64,000 bases of DNA from an uncultured cyanobacterium (GCA_963744145.1 CAVUSO010000001.1:2976001-3040000); one strand, 5' to 3'. Positions 1,122 to 8,547 are shown, numbered from the stretch's first letter. Numbers and translations are program-made. The notes: generated from the sequence alone by a model not told the origin.

Positions 1122-1679
1122 ATGCCTTCTTCATCAGTGGGAGCGATTTTACTAGTAGACGGATATAATGTGATTGGCCTATGGCCTTGCTTATGCAAGA
1201 CCCGCGATCGCTATGGTTTAGAAGCTTCACGTTGTCAGCTAATCGAAGTGCTGATTAGCTATAGTGCTTTCCAGGGATATGACACCAGAATAGTTTTTGA
1301 TTCTCAGTATCGAGATGGTCCCAGTACGACGGAAACATTTAGTGAAAATTTATCAGTTTATTATACTAACTTTGGCCAAACTGCCGATACTTTTATCGAA
1401 AAAGCTTGTGCTTCCTTTCGTTATGATATTCAAAAGTTACATAAACGTCTAATTGTGGCGACATCCGATCGCGCCCAGCAACTGACAGTAGTTGGTTATG
1501 GAGCAGAGTGGATGTCTGCACATCAGTTAGTTACCGATGTCGAAGTAAGTAAATATCGCGTTCGTCAAAAACAGCAGCAAAAAAAACGAGCCGATGGTCG
1601 CTTTTTGGGCAATTCCTTAAATCAAGCCGCCTTGGAACGTTTGGCCAATCTTCGTCAAAGTCTACATCAAAAAAAATAA
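1122..1679 (+). CDS. NYN-domain (YacP/Rae1-like) ribonuclease
   Basis: LLVDGYNVIG, IVFD, TADTFIE and VATSD motifs of NYN_YacP. Confidence 0.85.
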   Translation: MPSSSVGAILLVDGYNVIGLWPCLCKTRDRYGLEASRCQLIEVLISYSAFQGYDTRIVFDSQYRDGPSTTETFSENLSVYYTNFGQTADTFIEKACASFRYDIQKLHKRLIVATSDRAQQLTVVGYGAEWMSAHQLVTDVEVSKYRVRQKQQQKKRADGRFLGNSLNQAALERLANLRQSLHQKK

Positions 1680-1760: not shown

Positions 1761-1832
1761 TCCTCAGTAGCTCAGTGGTAGAGCGATCGGCTGTTAACCG
1801 ATTGGTCGTAGGTTCGAATCCTACCTGGGGAG
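1761..1832 (+). tRNA. trnN: tRNA-Asn(GTT)
   Basis: Acceptor stem TCCTCAG/CTGGGGA, D arm AGCTCAGTGGTAGAGC, anticodon loop CTGTTAA, T arm GGTTCGAATCC; CCA not encoded. Confidence 0.97.
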
Positions 1833-1975: not shown

Positions 1976-2869
1976 GTGGGTTACTGCAAATATCTCATGG
2001 TCGAAATAGAGAAGCGAATCGACCAACACAGATTATTTGGACTAGATTCCCTACAAGAGCATTTGTTTCGGTTTTGTAAGGCTGTCATAACAGCAGATAG
2101 TGCTACAGTAAAGAAATTTATTTTTTACGATTTGGTTCCTTCTATATTTCTTTACGGACCGCCAAACACAGGGAAAACAACTCTGTGTTATTTGTTGTTT
2201 GACCGTCTGAAAAAAGAAGTCACCAATGAAATCAATTTTTACACTATTGATATTGGTAAGATGCTTGATCCTGCGTTAGGACAGTCATCTCGTAATTTAG
2301 AGCAAGCATTTGAAGATTTACGGAAAGCTTGTTCAGATGATTCATCAGCATTTTTAGTGCTAGATGAACTGGATTCTTTCTGTATGAACCGTAGTCGTGT
2401 TCAGGAGCATGATGCGATCCGTCGAGCAATGACAACTCTCATATTAGAACTTGACAAATTACATCCATCCTCAACCAGAAAATTGATTTTGTTCGGGATT
2501 ACTAATGTAGATCAACTAATTGATACAGCAGTGGTGCGTAGATTTTCCCTAAAGTATTGTGTTGATGCTAATCTTTTTTGGGAAGATTTTCGAGCTTATA
2601 TTGAGTATTTGAGTAAGCCAATTAACTACTCTCCTCAAGATCAAGATTTGCAGGCTTTATATGATATTTATCAACATCGTGCTTTCAAATCAGGAGACAT
2701 AAAAGCTCTTTATAAGGTTTTATTGATTGATGTCATTTGTGAAAACAAAGAAATTTCGATCAGAGATAAATTATTTAAGCTCTTTGAAGAAGGGTTCTCA
2801 ACTCACGAGCATTTAGTTAAAACTTACGGAGAATTTGCAAATGGCAGACAAAAAATGGCTAACAGATGA
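1976..2869 (+). CDS. Classical-clade AAA+ ATPase, Pch2/TRIP13-like (start may be ATG 1997)
   Basis: Walker A YGPPNTGKTTLC, Walker B FLVLDELDS, EHDAIRRAMTTL, sensor GITN, arginine finger IDTAVVRRF. Confidence 0.8.
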   Translation: MGYCKYLMVEIEKRIDQHRLFGLDSLQEHLFRFCKAVITADSATVKKFIFYDLVPSIFLYGPPNTGKTTLCYLLFDRLKKEVTNEINFYTIDIGKMLDPALGQSSRNLEQAFEDLRKACSDDSSAFLVLDELDSFCMNRSRVQEHDAIRRAMTTLILELDKLHPSSTRKLILFGITNVDQLIDTAVVRRFSLKYCVDANLFWEDFRAYIEYLSKPINYSPQDQDLQALYDIYQHRAFKSGDIKALYKVLLIDVICENKEISIRDKLFKLFEEGFSTHEHLVKTYGEFANGRQKMANR

Positions 2870-3065
2870 GGATAGGATGATCGATAGTTATAAAGCTCAC
2901 AGAGACTTGATCACCTGGATTATGAACAAGTTGCAAGCAGAGGGAATTGATTGTCGTAGAACAACAAGCAATGATTCTCATGGTGATATTCTTTACTATA
3001 AGCATGAAGACGCGCCAAGAGTGAAGGAAATTATCCGCGAAATTAACTCTAAGTATAATCCGTAG
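2841..3065 (+). CDS. Small protein (74 aa), possibly the N-terminal half of a PD-(D/E)xK nuclease fold
   Basis: ATG 2841 with GGAG upstream, overlaps the ATPase 3' end; LQAEGIDCRRTTSNDSHGDILY resembles the Mrr-type L..GY.V..T..s.D.G.D segment. Confidence 0.6.
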   Translation: MADKKWLTDEDRMIDSYKAHRDLITWIMNKLQAEGIDCRRTTSNDSHGDILYYKHEDAPRVKEIIREINSKYNP

Positions 3066-3074
3066 GATGTTTAT

Positions 3075-3282
3075 ATGCCATATATTGAAATCAAAGTCCG
3101 TCAACAGATCGACTCAACTTTAGCACAAAAGATTATTGACAAGAAATGTGTGACCGCTGTACTAACTACAGGGAAAATTACGGGTCCAAGCAAAGAAACT
3201 CTTTGATGAAAATGACATAGCATATGCAGAAAATGTTCCTGAGAAAGAGTTTAGGGAATCTGAAGCTAAGGAGGAAGGATAA
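3075..3282 (+). pseudogene. Frameshifted 68-aa ORF, possibly the C-terminal half of a PD-(D/E)xK nuclease fold
   Basis: Reads MPYIEIKVRQQIDSTLAQKIIDKKCVTAVLTTGKITGP, then one extra A at about 3188-3189; the corrected frame AKKLFDENDIAYAENVPEKEFRESEAKEEG ends in a TAATG overlap with ATG 3282; not in the ORF track. Confidence 0.7.
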
Positions 3283-3650
3283 TGTTAGACATTTCATTCT
3301 ACTCAGACGACAAAAAGATAGTTGATACAGTTTCTCTTTCAGAAGGATTTTACCTTTGGCTAAGTAAGTCAGACTTTTCTAAGATTGGCAAGTCTGAAGA
3401 AAAGGAGATGAAAGCAGATGAAGAAGTTGTAAAAGTTCCTGTTGTTTTTCTTGAAGGTGAAAATCGGAGAAAGTTTAGCACTTTTTTTCGTGATGCAATT
3501 GTCCAAGAAAGTAATGAAATGTTAGATAAACTAGGTTCTTCACCTTCAATGAAAGAATACTCTGACTATTCCTATAAGCTGAAAACTTTGCATGATATAC
3601 TTAAGCTGGTAGAGAATGAAAAAAACAAGTATTTGGGGCGAGTAGAATAA
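3282..3650 (+). CDS. Hypothetical protein (122 aa), last gene of the AAA operon
   Basis: Strong RBS AGGAGG and TAATG coupling; no recognised motif. Confidence 0.7.
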   Translation: MLDISFYSDDKKIVDTVSLSEGFYLWLSKSDFSKIGKSEEKEMKADEEVVKVPVVFLEGENRRKFSTFFRDAIVQESNEMLDKLGSSPSMKEYSDYSYKLKTLHDILKLVENEKNKYLGRVE

Positions 3651-5783: not shown

Positions 5784-6296
5784 TTAAGCATCAGGATTAT
5801 CTCCTTGGTGGAGCTGATTTAATAGAATATCAAGGATGCGACGATTTTCAGTTTGGAGTCCGCGAATTTCCTCTTGTTGTTGAAAAATAATTGTTTGTTG
5901 ATGTGTGATATTTGCTTGATGTTGATCCATTCTTTGAAATAACTGTTCTCGTTCCTCTCTAGCTTCTGCTGCTACATTTACTAAAGTTTGAATAGCGCGA
6001 GCATTACTCTCAATTAAGCGATTGTTATTCTCAGTCGCGATCGCAATATTATCCACCCGATTGGTCAAAGTTTCGAGGGAACTAGCGATATTATCCACCC
6101 GATTGGTCAAACCTTCTACCGAACTAGCGATATTATCCACCCGATTGGTCAAACTTTCTACCGAACTAGCGATATTATCCACCCGATTGGTCAAACTTTC
6201 TACCGAACTAGCGATACTATCCACCCGATTGGTCAAACCTTCTACCGAATTAGCTAGACGATCTAGTCTTCCATCATCCCATTGCTGTCTACTCAT
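5784..6296 (-). CDS. Coiled-coil heptad-repeat protein (paralog 1)
   Basis: Starts MSRQQWDDGRLDRL; 14-aa repeats (IASSVESLTNRVDN); C-terminus EIRGLQTENRRILD. Confidence 0.75.
   Translation of the reverse strand: MSRQQWDDGRLDRLANSVEGLTNRVDSIASSVESLTNRVDNIASSVESLTNRVDNIASSVEGLTNRVDNIASSLETLTNRVDNIAIATENNNRLIESNARAIQTLVNVAAEAREEREQLFQRMDQHQANITHQQTIIFQQQEEIRGLQTENRRILDILLNQLHQGDNPDA
6042..6255. repeat. In-frame 42-nt tandem repeat (about 5 units)
   Basis: GCGATATTATCCACCCGATTGGTCAAAcTTTCTACCGAACTA repeated head to tail. Confidence 0.9.
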
Positions 6297-6505
6297 AAAT
6301 TTTTTCCCCAACTTGCTGGTTTTTATGATAACTTAGATTTTAGTTATTTTACTTAATCATTCTGCGATCATCTTACTTTTCTGCGATGCGATCGCGCAGG
6401 ATAGATTTTTGGGGATAAATATTATCGTGTATAATGCTCAGAGAATACACCTATTAATCGAGCCAGATAGAAACATTAACTACTTTGAACAGGGTAAAGA
6501 TCGCC

Positions 6506-7081
6506 ATGACTAGCTTAACATTAAACCTTAACCCCATTATTAAACTGACAGATGAACAATTTTTTCAACTCTGTCAAGAAAATGACAATATTAGATTAGA
6601 ACGCACCGCTAAAGGAGAATTAATTATCATGTCACCCGCAGGAGGAGAAACTGGAAATCGGAATGGAAGATTAACACAGCAATTATTCAATTGGGTGGAT
6701 CAAGATGCTAGCGGTATTGCGTTTGATTCTTCCACGGGATTTAAACTACCTAATGGTGCAGATAGATCACCTGATGCTGCTTGGGTAAAGTTAGAACGTT
6801 GGAATGCTTTAACTCCTGAACAAAAAACGAAATTTCCTCCTTTGTGTCCAGATTTTGTGGTGGAATTACTTTCACCGAGTGATAGTTTGAAAGAAACTCA
6901 GGATAAGATGAAGGAATATCGAGATAATGGTGTACTTTTGGGGTTGTTAATTAATCGCAAAAATCAACAAGTAGAAATTTATCGACCAGGTAGAGAAGTT
7001 GAGGTATTAGATCATCCTACTCAGATATCTGGTGATCCGGTTCTCCCTGGTTTTGTGTTAAACTTAGCATCAATTTGGTAG
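6506..7081 (+). CDS. Uma2 family PD-(D/E)xK putative endonuclease, copy 1
   Basis: RLERTAKGELIIMSP, FDSSTGFKLPNGADRSPDAAWV, CPDFVVELLSPSD, KMKEY motifs. Confidence 0.93.
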   Translation: MTSLTLNLNPIIKLTDEQFFQLCQENDNIRLERTAKGELIIMSPAGGETGNRNGRLTQQLFNWVDQDASGIAFDSSTGFKLPNGADRSPDAAWVKLERWNALTPEQKTKFPPLCPDFVVELLSPSDSLKETQDKMKEYRDNGVLLGLLINRKNQQVEIYRPGREVEVLDHPTQISGDPVLPGFVLNLASIW

Positions 7082-7225
7082 CGATAACAGTGATGAGAAA
7101 TGCGATCGCTTTTTTTCTAAAGTGCGATCGCACCTAATTTATTATAGTGTATAATGCTCAGAAAATGTACCTGTTAATCGAGCCAGATTGAAACCTTAAC
7201 CACTTTGAAAAGAATAAATATCGCT

Positions 7226-7801
7226 ATGACCAGCTTAACATTAAACCTCAACCCCATTATTAAACTGACAGATGAACAATTTTTTCAACTCTGTCAAGAA
7301 AATGACAATGTTAGATTAGAACGCACCGCTAAAGGAGAATTAATTATTATGTCACCCGCAGGAGGAGAAACTGGAAATCGCAATGCAGGACTAACTGCAC
7401 AACTTTGGATTTGGAATGAGCAAAATAAACAAGGTATTGTTTTTGATTCTTCCACGGGATTTAAACTACCTAATGGTGCAGATAGATCACCTGATGCTGC
7501 TTGGGTAAAGTTAGAACGTTGGAATGCTTTAACTCCTGAACAAAAAACGAAATTTCCTCCTTTGTGTCCAGATTTTGTGGTGGAATTACTTTCACCGAGT
7601 GATAGTTTGAAAGAAACTCAGGATAAGATGAAGGAATATCGAGATAATGGTGTACTTTTGGGGTTGTTAATTAATCGCAAAAATCAACAAGTAGAAATTT
7701 ATCGACCAAGTAGAGAAGTTGAGGTATTAGATCATCCTACTCAGATATCTGGTGATCCGGTTCTCCCTGGTTTTGTGTTAAACTTAGCATCAATTTGGTA
7801 G
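7226..7801 (+). CDS. Uma2 family PD-(D/E)xK putative endonuclease, copy 2
   Basis: Same motifs; near-identical to copy 1 apart from one 20-codon block. Confidence 0.93.
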   Translation: MTSLTLNLNPIIKLTDEQFFQLCQENDNVRLERTAKGELIIMSPAGGETGNRNAGLTAQLWIWNEQNKQGIVFDSSTGFKLPNGADRSPDAAWVKLERWNALTPEQKTKFPPLCPDFVVELLSPSDSLKETQDKMKEYRDNGVLLGLLINRKNQQVEIYRPSREVEVLDHPTQISGDPVLPGFVLNLASIW

Positions 7802-7867
7802 CGATAACAGTGATGAGAAATGCGATCGCTTTTTCTCAAGTACGATCGCCTCAACCTTCTAATTTAA

Positions 7868-8359
7868 TTAAGCAGTAGGATGATCTCCCTGATTACGCTG
7901 ATTGATTAGAATATCAAGAATGCGACGATTTTCAGTTTGGAGTCCGCGAATTTCTTCTTGTTGCTGAACAATAATTGCTTGTTGCTGTGCCATATTTGCT
8001 TGTTGCTGTGCTATATTTTCTTGATGTTGATCCATCCTTTGAAATAACTGTTCTCGTTCTTCCCTTGCTTCTGCTGCTACATTTGCTAATGCTTGAATAA
8101 CGCGAGCATTACTCTCGATCAAGTGATTGTTATTCTCGGTCGCGATCGCAATCCGATCAACCCGATTGGTCAAATTTTCGACCGAGTTAGCGATATTATC
8201 AACCCGATTGGTCAAATTTTCGACCGAGTTAGCGATATTATCAACCCGATTGGTCAAATTTTCGATCGAGTTAGCGATATTATCAACCCGATTGGTCAAA
8301 TTTTCGACCGAGTTAGCTAGACGATCTAGTCGAGCGTCATCCCATTGCTCCCTACTCAT
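7868..8359 (-). CDS. Coiled-coil heptad-repeat protein (paralog 2)
   Basis: Starts MSREQWDDARLDRL; 14-aa repeats IANSVENLTNRVDN from 42-nt units at about 8148-8315; same C-terminus as paralog 1. Confidence 0.75.
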   Translation of the reverse strand: MSREQWDDARLDRLANSVENLTNRVDNIANSIENLTNRVDNIANSVENLTNRVDNIANSVENLTNRVDRIAIATENNNHLIESNARVIQALANVAAEAREEREQLFQRMDQHQENIAQQQANMAQQQAIIVQQQEEIRGLQTENRRILDILINQRNQGDHPTA

Positions 8360-8547
8360 AAATTTTTCTCCTAAATTGCTGATTTTTATCATAACTTCTC
8401 TTTGAGTTCTTTTGCTTACCCTGCCACGTTCGCTAATTTTTCCCCAGGTGTGAACAGCACTATGTTATAATCAAAAGGATTAAACACATATTAGTGACTT
8501 TTTATTGAGCAGCAAATCAATAATAAATTTTTAAGTGCCTAGGATAA

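Follow-up and report, generated by a model that had tools for sequence, protein, structure and literature searches.

Can the catalytic residues of a single nuclease be distributed over two neighboring genes? The question is raised by a 64,000-nucleotide (nt) stretch of DNA from an uncultured cyanobacterium (GCA_963744145.1 CAVUSO010000001.1:2976001-3040000; hereafter the window, with positions counted from its first letter), in which two very short open reading frames (ORFs), ORF1 and ORF2, lie between a gene for an AAA ATPase and a third short gene, ORF3. A reading made from the sequence alone (the sequence-only reading) had proposed that ORF1 and ORF2 together specify a PD-(D/E)xK nuclease fold of the Mrr type, with the catalytic Asp on one polypeptide and the Glu-x-Lys (ExK) motif on the other. 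Our computational results support the central part of this proposal, placing the Asp of the Gly-Asp (GD) motif at residue 49 of ORF1 and the ExK motif at Glu 5 and Lys 7 of ORF2. We estimate a probability of roughly 0.6 that ORF1 and ORF2 each supply one half of a small α/β domain and together rebuild a PD-(D/E)xK-like core with a composite putative active site. The idea of a split core is supported because fused homologs are collinear with the two genes, because the two-chain structure prediction passes its controls, and because the model of the joined chain matches proteins with the restriction-endonuclease fold.

We asked whether the two genes have counterparts in which they form one. When 1.84 billion representative proteins were searched with the domain profile, 126 matched at an expect value (E) ≤ 0.001, most of them being single halves. 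In nine of the 126, a single stretch spans both halves within one protein of 144–165 amino acids (aa). Since these natural single-chain homologs align collinearly with ORF1–stop–ORF2, having only a linker that is 10–17 residues longer, ORF1 and ORF2 are, as judged from the alignments, halves of one domain and not a pseudogene. The fused forms that carry a name are cyanobacterial "hypothetical proteins" of Microcoleaceae, one cluster of which has 23 members. The two arrangements also share a genomic site. In two metagenome contigs (L061 and L062), the fused gene and ORF3 lie between purA and the L25 gene, and a split cassette occupies the same purA–L25 site in L064. In L063 (690–2402) the site holds both in tandem: a fused gene (155 aa) with its ORF3, followed by a split pair (68 + 72 aa) with an ORF3 of its own. 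In the ORF3 tree, the seven fused cassettes form one clade (support 100/99) within which the split cassette of L064 is nested, and the unrooted tree implies at least two changes of state between split and fused. The family appears to be mostly cyanobacterial and undescribed, and to exist both as one chain and as two genes.

The profile also matches giant proteins of 1209–5106 aa (P0073, P0109, P0111, P0120, P0131, P0135 and P0142), in each case over the ORF1 hairpin-plus-helix only, in 4–8 repeats. One of them, P0073, consists of Secretin_N domains in a row (Pfam 3.5e-112, over 18 stretches). Rather than homology, these matches probably reflect a local strand-PED-helix motif that the proteins have in common with ORF1.

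An alignment of 16 ORF1 sequences has a mean column identity of 65%; its predicted helix 1 carries an invariant TDED together with His 20, and the loop after strand 1 ends in Gly 48-Asp 49, with Asp 49 retained in 15 of the 16. Ile 4, Glu 5, Ile 6 and Lys 7 of ORF2 are invariant in 18 of 18 sequences. When fused and split forms are taken together, the Glu is invariant and GD is kept in at least 90%.

The structural model of the domain was generated with AlphaFold2 from the in-frame read-through of locus L001, with the stop entered as X and an alignment of 7 sequences; its predicted local distance difference test score (pLDDT) is 68.7 and its predicted template modeling score 0.61. The model consists of a helix (14–38), two strands (43–45 and 55–58), an inserted helix (60–77), a third strand (87–91), a helix (98–106), a strand (110–115), a helix (121–129), a strand (133–135) and a further helix. 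The predicted order agrees with the core topology of the superfamily, helix-strand-strand-strand-helix-strand with a mixed sheet. GD is predicted to stand immediately before strand 2 and IEIK within strand 3. A Foldseek search with this model returned MspJI first (5e-4), followed by EndoMS/NucS, AF1548 and Rpb5. At least 15 of the 50 structural matches listed are titled nuclease, restriction enzyme or resolvase, and many further ones in the list presumably contain the restriction-endonuclease fold as well. We consider a restriction-endonuclease-like fold to be the probable assignment for the modeled domain; it is the predicted structure and the placement of the motifs that link the family to the PD-(D/E)xK superfamily.

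The modeled domain resembles minimal PD-(D/E)xK domains such as AF1548 (1y88), the C-terminal domain of NucS/EndoMS (2vld, 5gke), the catalytic domains of MspJI and AspBHI, and Mrr_cat (PF04471). These have the same order of core elements as the prediction, and likewise an Asp directly ahead of strand 2 and Glu-x-Lys within strand 3. The Mrr_cat consensus also has a T-T-G/S turn after strand 4 and then a helix, as does ORF2. Unlike these domains, ORF1 and ORF2 are two chains, with the break falling between strands 2 and 3; an 18-residue helix is inserted at the same place, in the fused forms too. Further differences are the lack of an attached DNA-binding domain, an acidic C-terminal tail, and the lack of a hidden Markov model match or a significant profile match.

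Can the two chains be expected to find each other? Prediction of the ORF1–ORF2 complex with family alignments gave scores of 0.61, 0.61 and 0.67, compared with 0.01 for the best control, a result to be read with the caveat that halves of one domain can score as a complex through their likeness to solved single-chain folds. Among solved complexes, 116 of 157 attain the same mark; among mismatched pairs, 2 of 215 do. The runs share at least 88% of contacts, and the pLDDT of the partner is at least 77. In the predicted complex, ORF1 residues 49–55 (Asp 49 and strand 2) contact ORF2 residues 1–9 (MPYIEIKVR), ORF1 helix 1 contacts ORF2 residues 6 and 32, and the C-terminal helix of ORF1 contacts ORF2 residues 27–30 and 49–56. 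The prediction supports, but does not show, the formation of an ORF1–ORF2 heterodimer. The sequence-only reading had named structure prediction of the two peptides as its check, and both a complex and a restriction-endonuclease-like fold are indeed predicted.

According to this model, the N-terminal half would contribute helix 1, which carries TDED and the His, then the first strand, next the second strand with Gly-Asp ahead of it, and finally an additional helix. The C-terminal half would begin at strand 3 with Glu-x-Lys and continue with a helix, the strand with TTG, a second helix and a last strand. Pairing of ORF1 strand 2 with ORF2 strand 3 would complete one sheet, on the ORF2 part of which the C-terminal helix of ORF1 is predicted to pack, and the Asp of chain 1 and the Glu-x-Lys of chain 2 would be brought together. 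The domain assembled in this way may be a metal-dependent nuclease.

The more specific claim that the domain belongs to the Mrr type by sequence was not supported. The halves, 7 read-throughs and the 9 fused forms matched no nuclease family of Pfam and, for Mrr_cat in particular (cut-off 21 bits), gave no match at E ≤ 1; a search of the window's genome for Mrr_cat found no match either. Searches of Pfam, NCBIfam, PADLOC and PHROGs with ORF1, ORF2, ORF3 and the fused forms assigned no family. The comparison alignment for Mrr_cat (A5) was built from the genomes of relatives and is shallow. With such shallow alignments, hhalign gave P values in the range 0.003–0.035 against Mrr_cat (0.0029 with A4 and 0.035 with A6), aligning helix 1, the GD region and the TTG..A region but not ExK, and P 0.04 against UPF0102, over IEIK only. 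As a calibration, Mrr_cat was compared with UPF0102, which we take to be two PD-(D/E)xK families; hhalign gives only P 9e-4 for this pair and hence has little power here. On the sequence searches, the family cannot be filed under Mrr_cat. Sequence and profile searches of the PDB gave nothing significant, and matches to a designed TIM barrel and to MarR in these searches were rejected as local motifs only. The ESM Atlas yielded no usable match for the fused protein P0036. Full-text literature searches listed no paper describing the family, and the term "split nuclease" did not occur in the papers listed by one of them.

Several of these observations weigh against a PD-(D/E)xK core. Neither Pfam nor the PDB searches link the family to the superfamily, and the hhalign P values for Mrr_cat and UPF0102 are poor. 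The confidence of the model is moderate (pLDDT 68.7 from 7 sequences), and the fold does not usually have a helix such as the 18-residue one that separates strands 2 and 3. The GD Asp is missing from ORF1 of locus L007, two distant fused forms have IEFR instead of IEIK, and the window's own ORF2 carries a frameshift, described below. Finally, two proteins (P0048 and P0176) have no ORF1-like part, so that the C-terminal half may not strictly need the N-terminal one.

These two proteins are metagenomic, 226 and 280 aa long, and consist of 3–4 tandem ORF2-like modules (SYIEIK...VISR..I.P.A.K.F....I.YA). Their architecture suggests that an ORF2-like module can pack against copies of itself.

Could the two chains then form an α/β domain that is not a nuclease at all, with a structural, regulatory or binding role, and resemble nucleases only through a common arrangement of helices and sheet? 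Such an explanation accommodates the missing profile link to any nuclease family, the existence of tandem proteins made of ORF2 only, the loss of the Asp at one locus, and the fact that the hairpin-helix of ORF1 also matches Secretin_N repeats and, weakly, the MarR wing (E 0.18). It does not account for the position of the motifs, since the Asp ahead of strand 2 and the ExK within strand 3 occupy the exact signature positions of PD-(D/E)xK, nor for the fact that these residues are among the most conserved in fused and split forms alike. Moreover, nucleases make up most of the top structural matches. We therefore regard a domain without nuclease function as a real but rather unlikely possibility, and a PD-(D/E)xK-like core as the preferred reading.

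Next, we asked how typical the split is. Proteins of the 68-aa ORF2 family are frequent among cyanobacteria and contain no Pfam domain. A first scan, of one genome per species, yielded 16 loci; its search patterns came from split-type ORF2, a bias in favor of split loci. ORF1 (68–80 aa) and ORF2 (67–68 aa) are separate genes in all 15 complete loci, the sixteenth being truncated by a contig end. The loci include two from Chloroflexi, a Caldilineaceae metagenome-assembled genome and Litorilinea. The second scan was less biased: it used a profile of the whole domain and covered 401 genomes drawn evenly from the phylum. It matched 22 of the 401 genomes, in 12 of 156 genera. When translated, these loci comprised 14 split forms (the window included), 4 fused forms, 2 very distant split forms and 2 fragments. 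Full cassettes were thus split in 14 of 18, the single fused ORFs being those of G366, G225, G076 and G132. The very distant four-gene variants (G307 and G008) are also split, and the split is retained in distant variants at 34–38% identity. The ratio of non-synonymous to synonymous substitution rates (dN/dS) is 0.06–0.22 for ORF1 and 0.06–0.44 for ORF2, with most ORF2 pairs at or below 0.25. Both halves are under purifying selection, and dozens of loci retain them together, a pattern far beyond chance.

The very distant version of the four-gene cassette, at L050 (446–2164) and L052 (425–2137), has an AAA ATPase of 283–284 aa, an ORF1-like gene whose product, of 75 or 100 aa, contains ...NDxxGD..., an ORF2-like gene for 74 aa with YIEVK, and a fourth gene for 127–134 aa. 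Only the ORF2-like half reaches the profile threshold there.

The window's own copy of ORF2 requires separate comment. The motifs from which the sequence-only reading started are present in ORF1 as described, its sequence including LQAEGIDCRRTTSNDSHGDILYY, but an ORF at 3075–3282 is not open, the second ORF having been read across a 1-nt frameshift. ORF2 begins with MPYIEIK, directly at the ExK strand, and also contains AVLTTGKITGP; as encoded in the window it reads MPYIEIKVRQQIDSTLAQKIIDKKCVTAVLTTGKITGPSKETL and stops after 43 aa, the frame closing with ...GPSKETL and the frameshift falling after Pro 38. AKKLF and IAYAE are encoded solely in the +1 frame, at 3190–3282, and YIEIK...TTGKITGP in the other. 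In the window's genome, the 68-aa family profile matches in two frames (profile positions 1–43 and 32–68), and a profile search showed the frameshifted ORF2 to be the sole copy. Among public runs, the region was found in the contigs of a single soil metagenome (depth 5.3), and no RNA run was listed for it. One of these public contigs, 905 nt long, matches the window over 816 nt with a single difference, the absence of one base at 3188, which restores an intact 68-aa ORF2; the same protein is on record as P0002. Either an error of assembly or a genuine lesion may account for the extra A in the window.

Could the split itself be a product of decay, with a nonsense mutation (the TAG at 3063) having broken a single gene into pseudogene fragments? 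The sequence-only reading had stated that a simple pseudogene would be at hand if homologs were always a single fused ORF; most of them turned out to be split. Several features speak for decay: in the window, ORF1 and ORF2 share a frame and are parted by one TAG, and ORF2 is frameshifted; fused homologs are known, and ORF2 of another locus (L036) has a premature stop. The wider sample speaks against it. The split is seen in 15 of 15 cassettes of the first scan and in 14 of 18 of the second, every ORF2 has its own ATG, the frames vary with 1–3 stops in between, and distant variants keep the split at 34–38% identity; dN/dS stays at 0.06–0.44 across both halves, and the window's ORF2 is intact in the public contig. 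Because the split is recurrent, the two genes are halves of one domain and both are under purifying selection, a simple pseudogene is excluded, and we consider gene decay as the origin of the split to be very improbable.

Decay does occur in single loci. In L036 (G398, 1498–1956), the premature stop within ORF2 is a TAA, and L007 (3604–3982) has only a remnant of the AAA gene along with an ORF1 that lacks Gly-Asp.

Another way in which a single protein could arise is programmed read-through of the stop codon, or programmed frameshifting, and the joined product does fold as one domain in the model. In the 16 loci, ORF2 is in frame with ORF1 in 10, compared with one third expected by chance, but the loci are related and this is weak evidence. 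The other 6 are out of frame (+1 in 5 and +2 in 1). The spacer between ORF1 and ORF2 in relatives is 3–25 nt long and holds 1–3 stops, and several in-frame loci have 2–3 stops of mixed kind in it. ORF2 always retains its own ATG, and no recoding signal was seen, though no search for one was made. Since the frame relation and the spacer stops vary, the two are best regarded as separate genes; the recurrent split and the dN/dS values likewise argue against read-through, which is in our view even less probable than decay. The poorest of the alternatives, a TIR-like domain, has next to no probability: the read-through of the window matches TIR_2 (PF13676, E 4.8e-4), but its 21 bits fall short of the cut-off of 28, the match appears in only 2 of 7 read-throughs (in L001 on a different stretch) and in none of the 9 fused forms, and no TIR structure is among the structural matches listed, so that we rejected the match as chance.

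With two separate genes for the halves of a PD-(D/E)xK-like core as the preferred reading, the remainder of the cassette can be considered. The four genes follow one another head to tail, all on the + strand, downstream of tRNA-Asn (Table 1). The first 29 nt of ORF1 are shared with the end of the AAA ATPase gene, ORF1 and ORF2 are in the same frame with one TAG and 9 nt between them, and the ORF2 stop and ORF3 start codon share 1 nt. Downstream of the cassette, no repeat of the 3' end of tRNA-Asn (att-like) was found, and a promoter and terminator scan of the region did not rise above shuffled controls.

Table 1. Position of the cassette genes, the ORF2 frameshift and the adjoining upstream features in the window
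Feature	Position	Strand	Remarks
YacP-like NYN-domain gene	1122-1679	+	Pfam 3.8e-44; 5' of tRNA-Asn
tRNA-Asn (GTT)	1761-1832	+	144 nt 5' of the AAA ATPase gene
AAA ATPase gene	1976-2869	+	297 aa; leads the cassette in its four-gene form; optional component
ORF1 (N-terminal half)	2841-3065	+	74 aa; alternative TTG start at 2835
TAG stop of ORF1 and 9-nt spacer to ORF2 start	3063-3074	+	stop in frame
ORF2 (C-terminal half) as encoded in the window	3075-3206	+	43 aa; stop 3204-3206
Frameshift site in ORF2	3188-3189	+	one of two A's extra relative to the family and to the public contig
Remainder of ORF2 in +1 frame, AKKLFDENDIAYAENVPEKEFRESEAKEEG	3190-3282	+	stop TAA 3280-3282; identical to the tail of P0002
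ORF3	3282-3650	+	122 aa; constant partner gene

Elsewhere in the window there is a region (5784–8392) with two nearly identical 198-aa genes on the + strand (6485–7081 and 7205–7801). The pair is flanked by paralogous minus-strand proteins of 174/175 aa (5784–6311 and 7868–8392), which contain an internal 11-residue repeat, SVE.LTNRVDNIA.

ORF3 (121 aa in the family, 122 aa in the window) is the constant companion of the domain: it follows ORF2 or the fused gene directly in 38 of 38 cassettes, with a stop/start overlap. Its structural model (pLDDT 91.4) combines a four-stranded sheet with a long helical hairpin, for which Foldseek and other structure searches, and Pfam searches with 16 members, recognized no family or fold. 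In the ESM Atlas only unnamed clusters were found, with recognition below the mark of the tool, and tblastn against plasmids and phages gave no match. ORF3 has 318 homolog clusters at 90% identity, and the 120 listed are all about 121–128 aa long. Two of these 120 (P0181 and P0272) are labeled "LAGLIDADG homing endonuclease" in UniRef. We consider this label unsupported: none of the 16 members has a LAGLIDADG match in Pfam, and I-CreI appears only at a Foldseek E of 1.4.

The AAA ATPase, by comparison, is readily recognized (Pfam AAA, PF00004, E 1.3e-20). It also resembles the ATPase of the IetAS system, matching PADLOC models of IetA at 4e-20 and the NCBIfam model of IteA at 1.3e-17, and it matches TRIP13 at 2e-15, in all of which only the generic AAA core is involved. 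Assignment as IetA/IteA was rejected: the score against NF042959 is 64 bits versus a cut-off of 510, and unlike IetAS the cassette has no gene for the IetS protease and mostly lacks the AAA gene itself. A full-length AAA ATPase stands directly before ORF1 in 8 of 15 genome loci and in 5 of 18 cassettes of the phylum sample. It is present in both distant variants, reduced to a remnant in L006 and L007, and absent beside all 7 fused forms. The sequence-only reading had suggested that the ATPase may control the assembly of the nuclease; it cannot be an obligatory controller because it is missing from most cassettes.

Within the cassette, ORF3 may be a regulator, an inhibitor or a targeting subunit of the domain, and the AAA ATPase an optional remodeler. 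The whole may represent an accessory conflict module, of the defense or the toxin–immunity type, because its distribution is patchy and its context variable. It is further conceivable that the split is functional: the nuclease would be gated by assembly, with an active site present in the heterodimer alone, ORF3 would restrain or aim it, and the AAA unfoldase of the four-gene cassettes would assemble or disassemble the complex. This would make the cassette a new type of conflict module based on regulated fold complementation, a proposal that we put forward as doubtful.

How does the cassette compare with known systems? The likeness to the XisH/XisI pairs of cyanobacteria is a weak match (2okf, which we take to be XisH). 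XisH, which pairs with XisI, is one chain, and no XisI was among the 50 structural matches listed for ORF3. Nuclease toxins of the CdiA-CT type with their CdiI immunity proteins likewise have an effector followed by a small partner, with a stop/start overlap. Unlike them, the cassette has no secretion or delivery domain, its scores to such systems are in the noise range, and ORF3 is only a putative inhibitor. A fold completed from two chains is known from endonuclease I of phage T7, the active sites of which are composite. The T7 enzyme is a homodimer in which one full-length gene product exchanges elements, whereas here two genes would supply half a core each. A 2012 survey of the superfamily (PMC3424549) counts domain swapping, with phage T7 endonuclease I (2pfj) as the case, among the core variations, together with permutation and insertions; split genes are not named in the passages that list these variations.

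The family is sizeable and entirely unannotated, and its naturally split halves may suit split-enzyme tools. Fused relatives in the same genus, even in tandem on one contig, amount to natural experiments. If both the fold and the activity hold true, the family would represent a stable, natural minimal nuclease core that is cut through its catalytic hairpin, with Asp and ExK on separate polypeptides. It would then offer a system for studying how a domain survives gene fission and how heterodimerization can serve as a gate on a dangerous activity, as well as the roles that the 121-aa partner and the optional AAA ATPase play in it.

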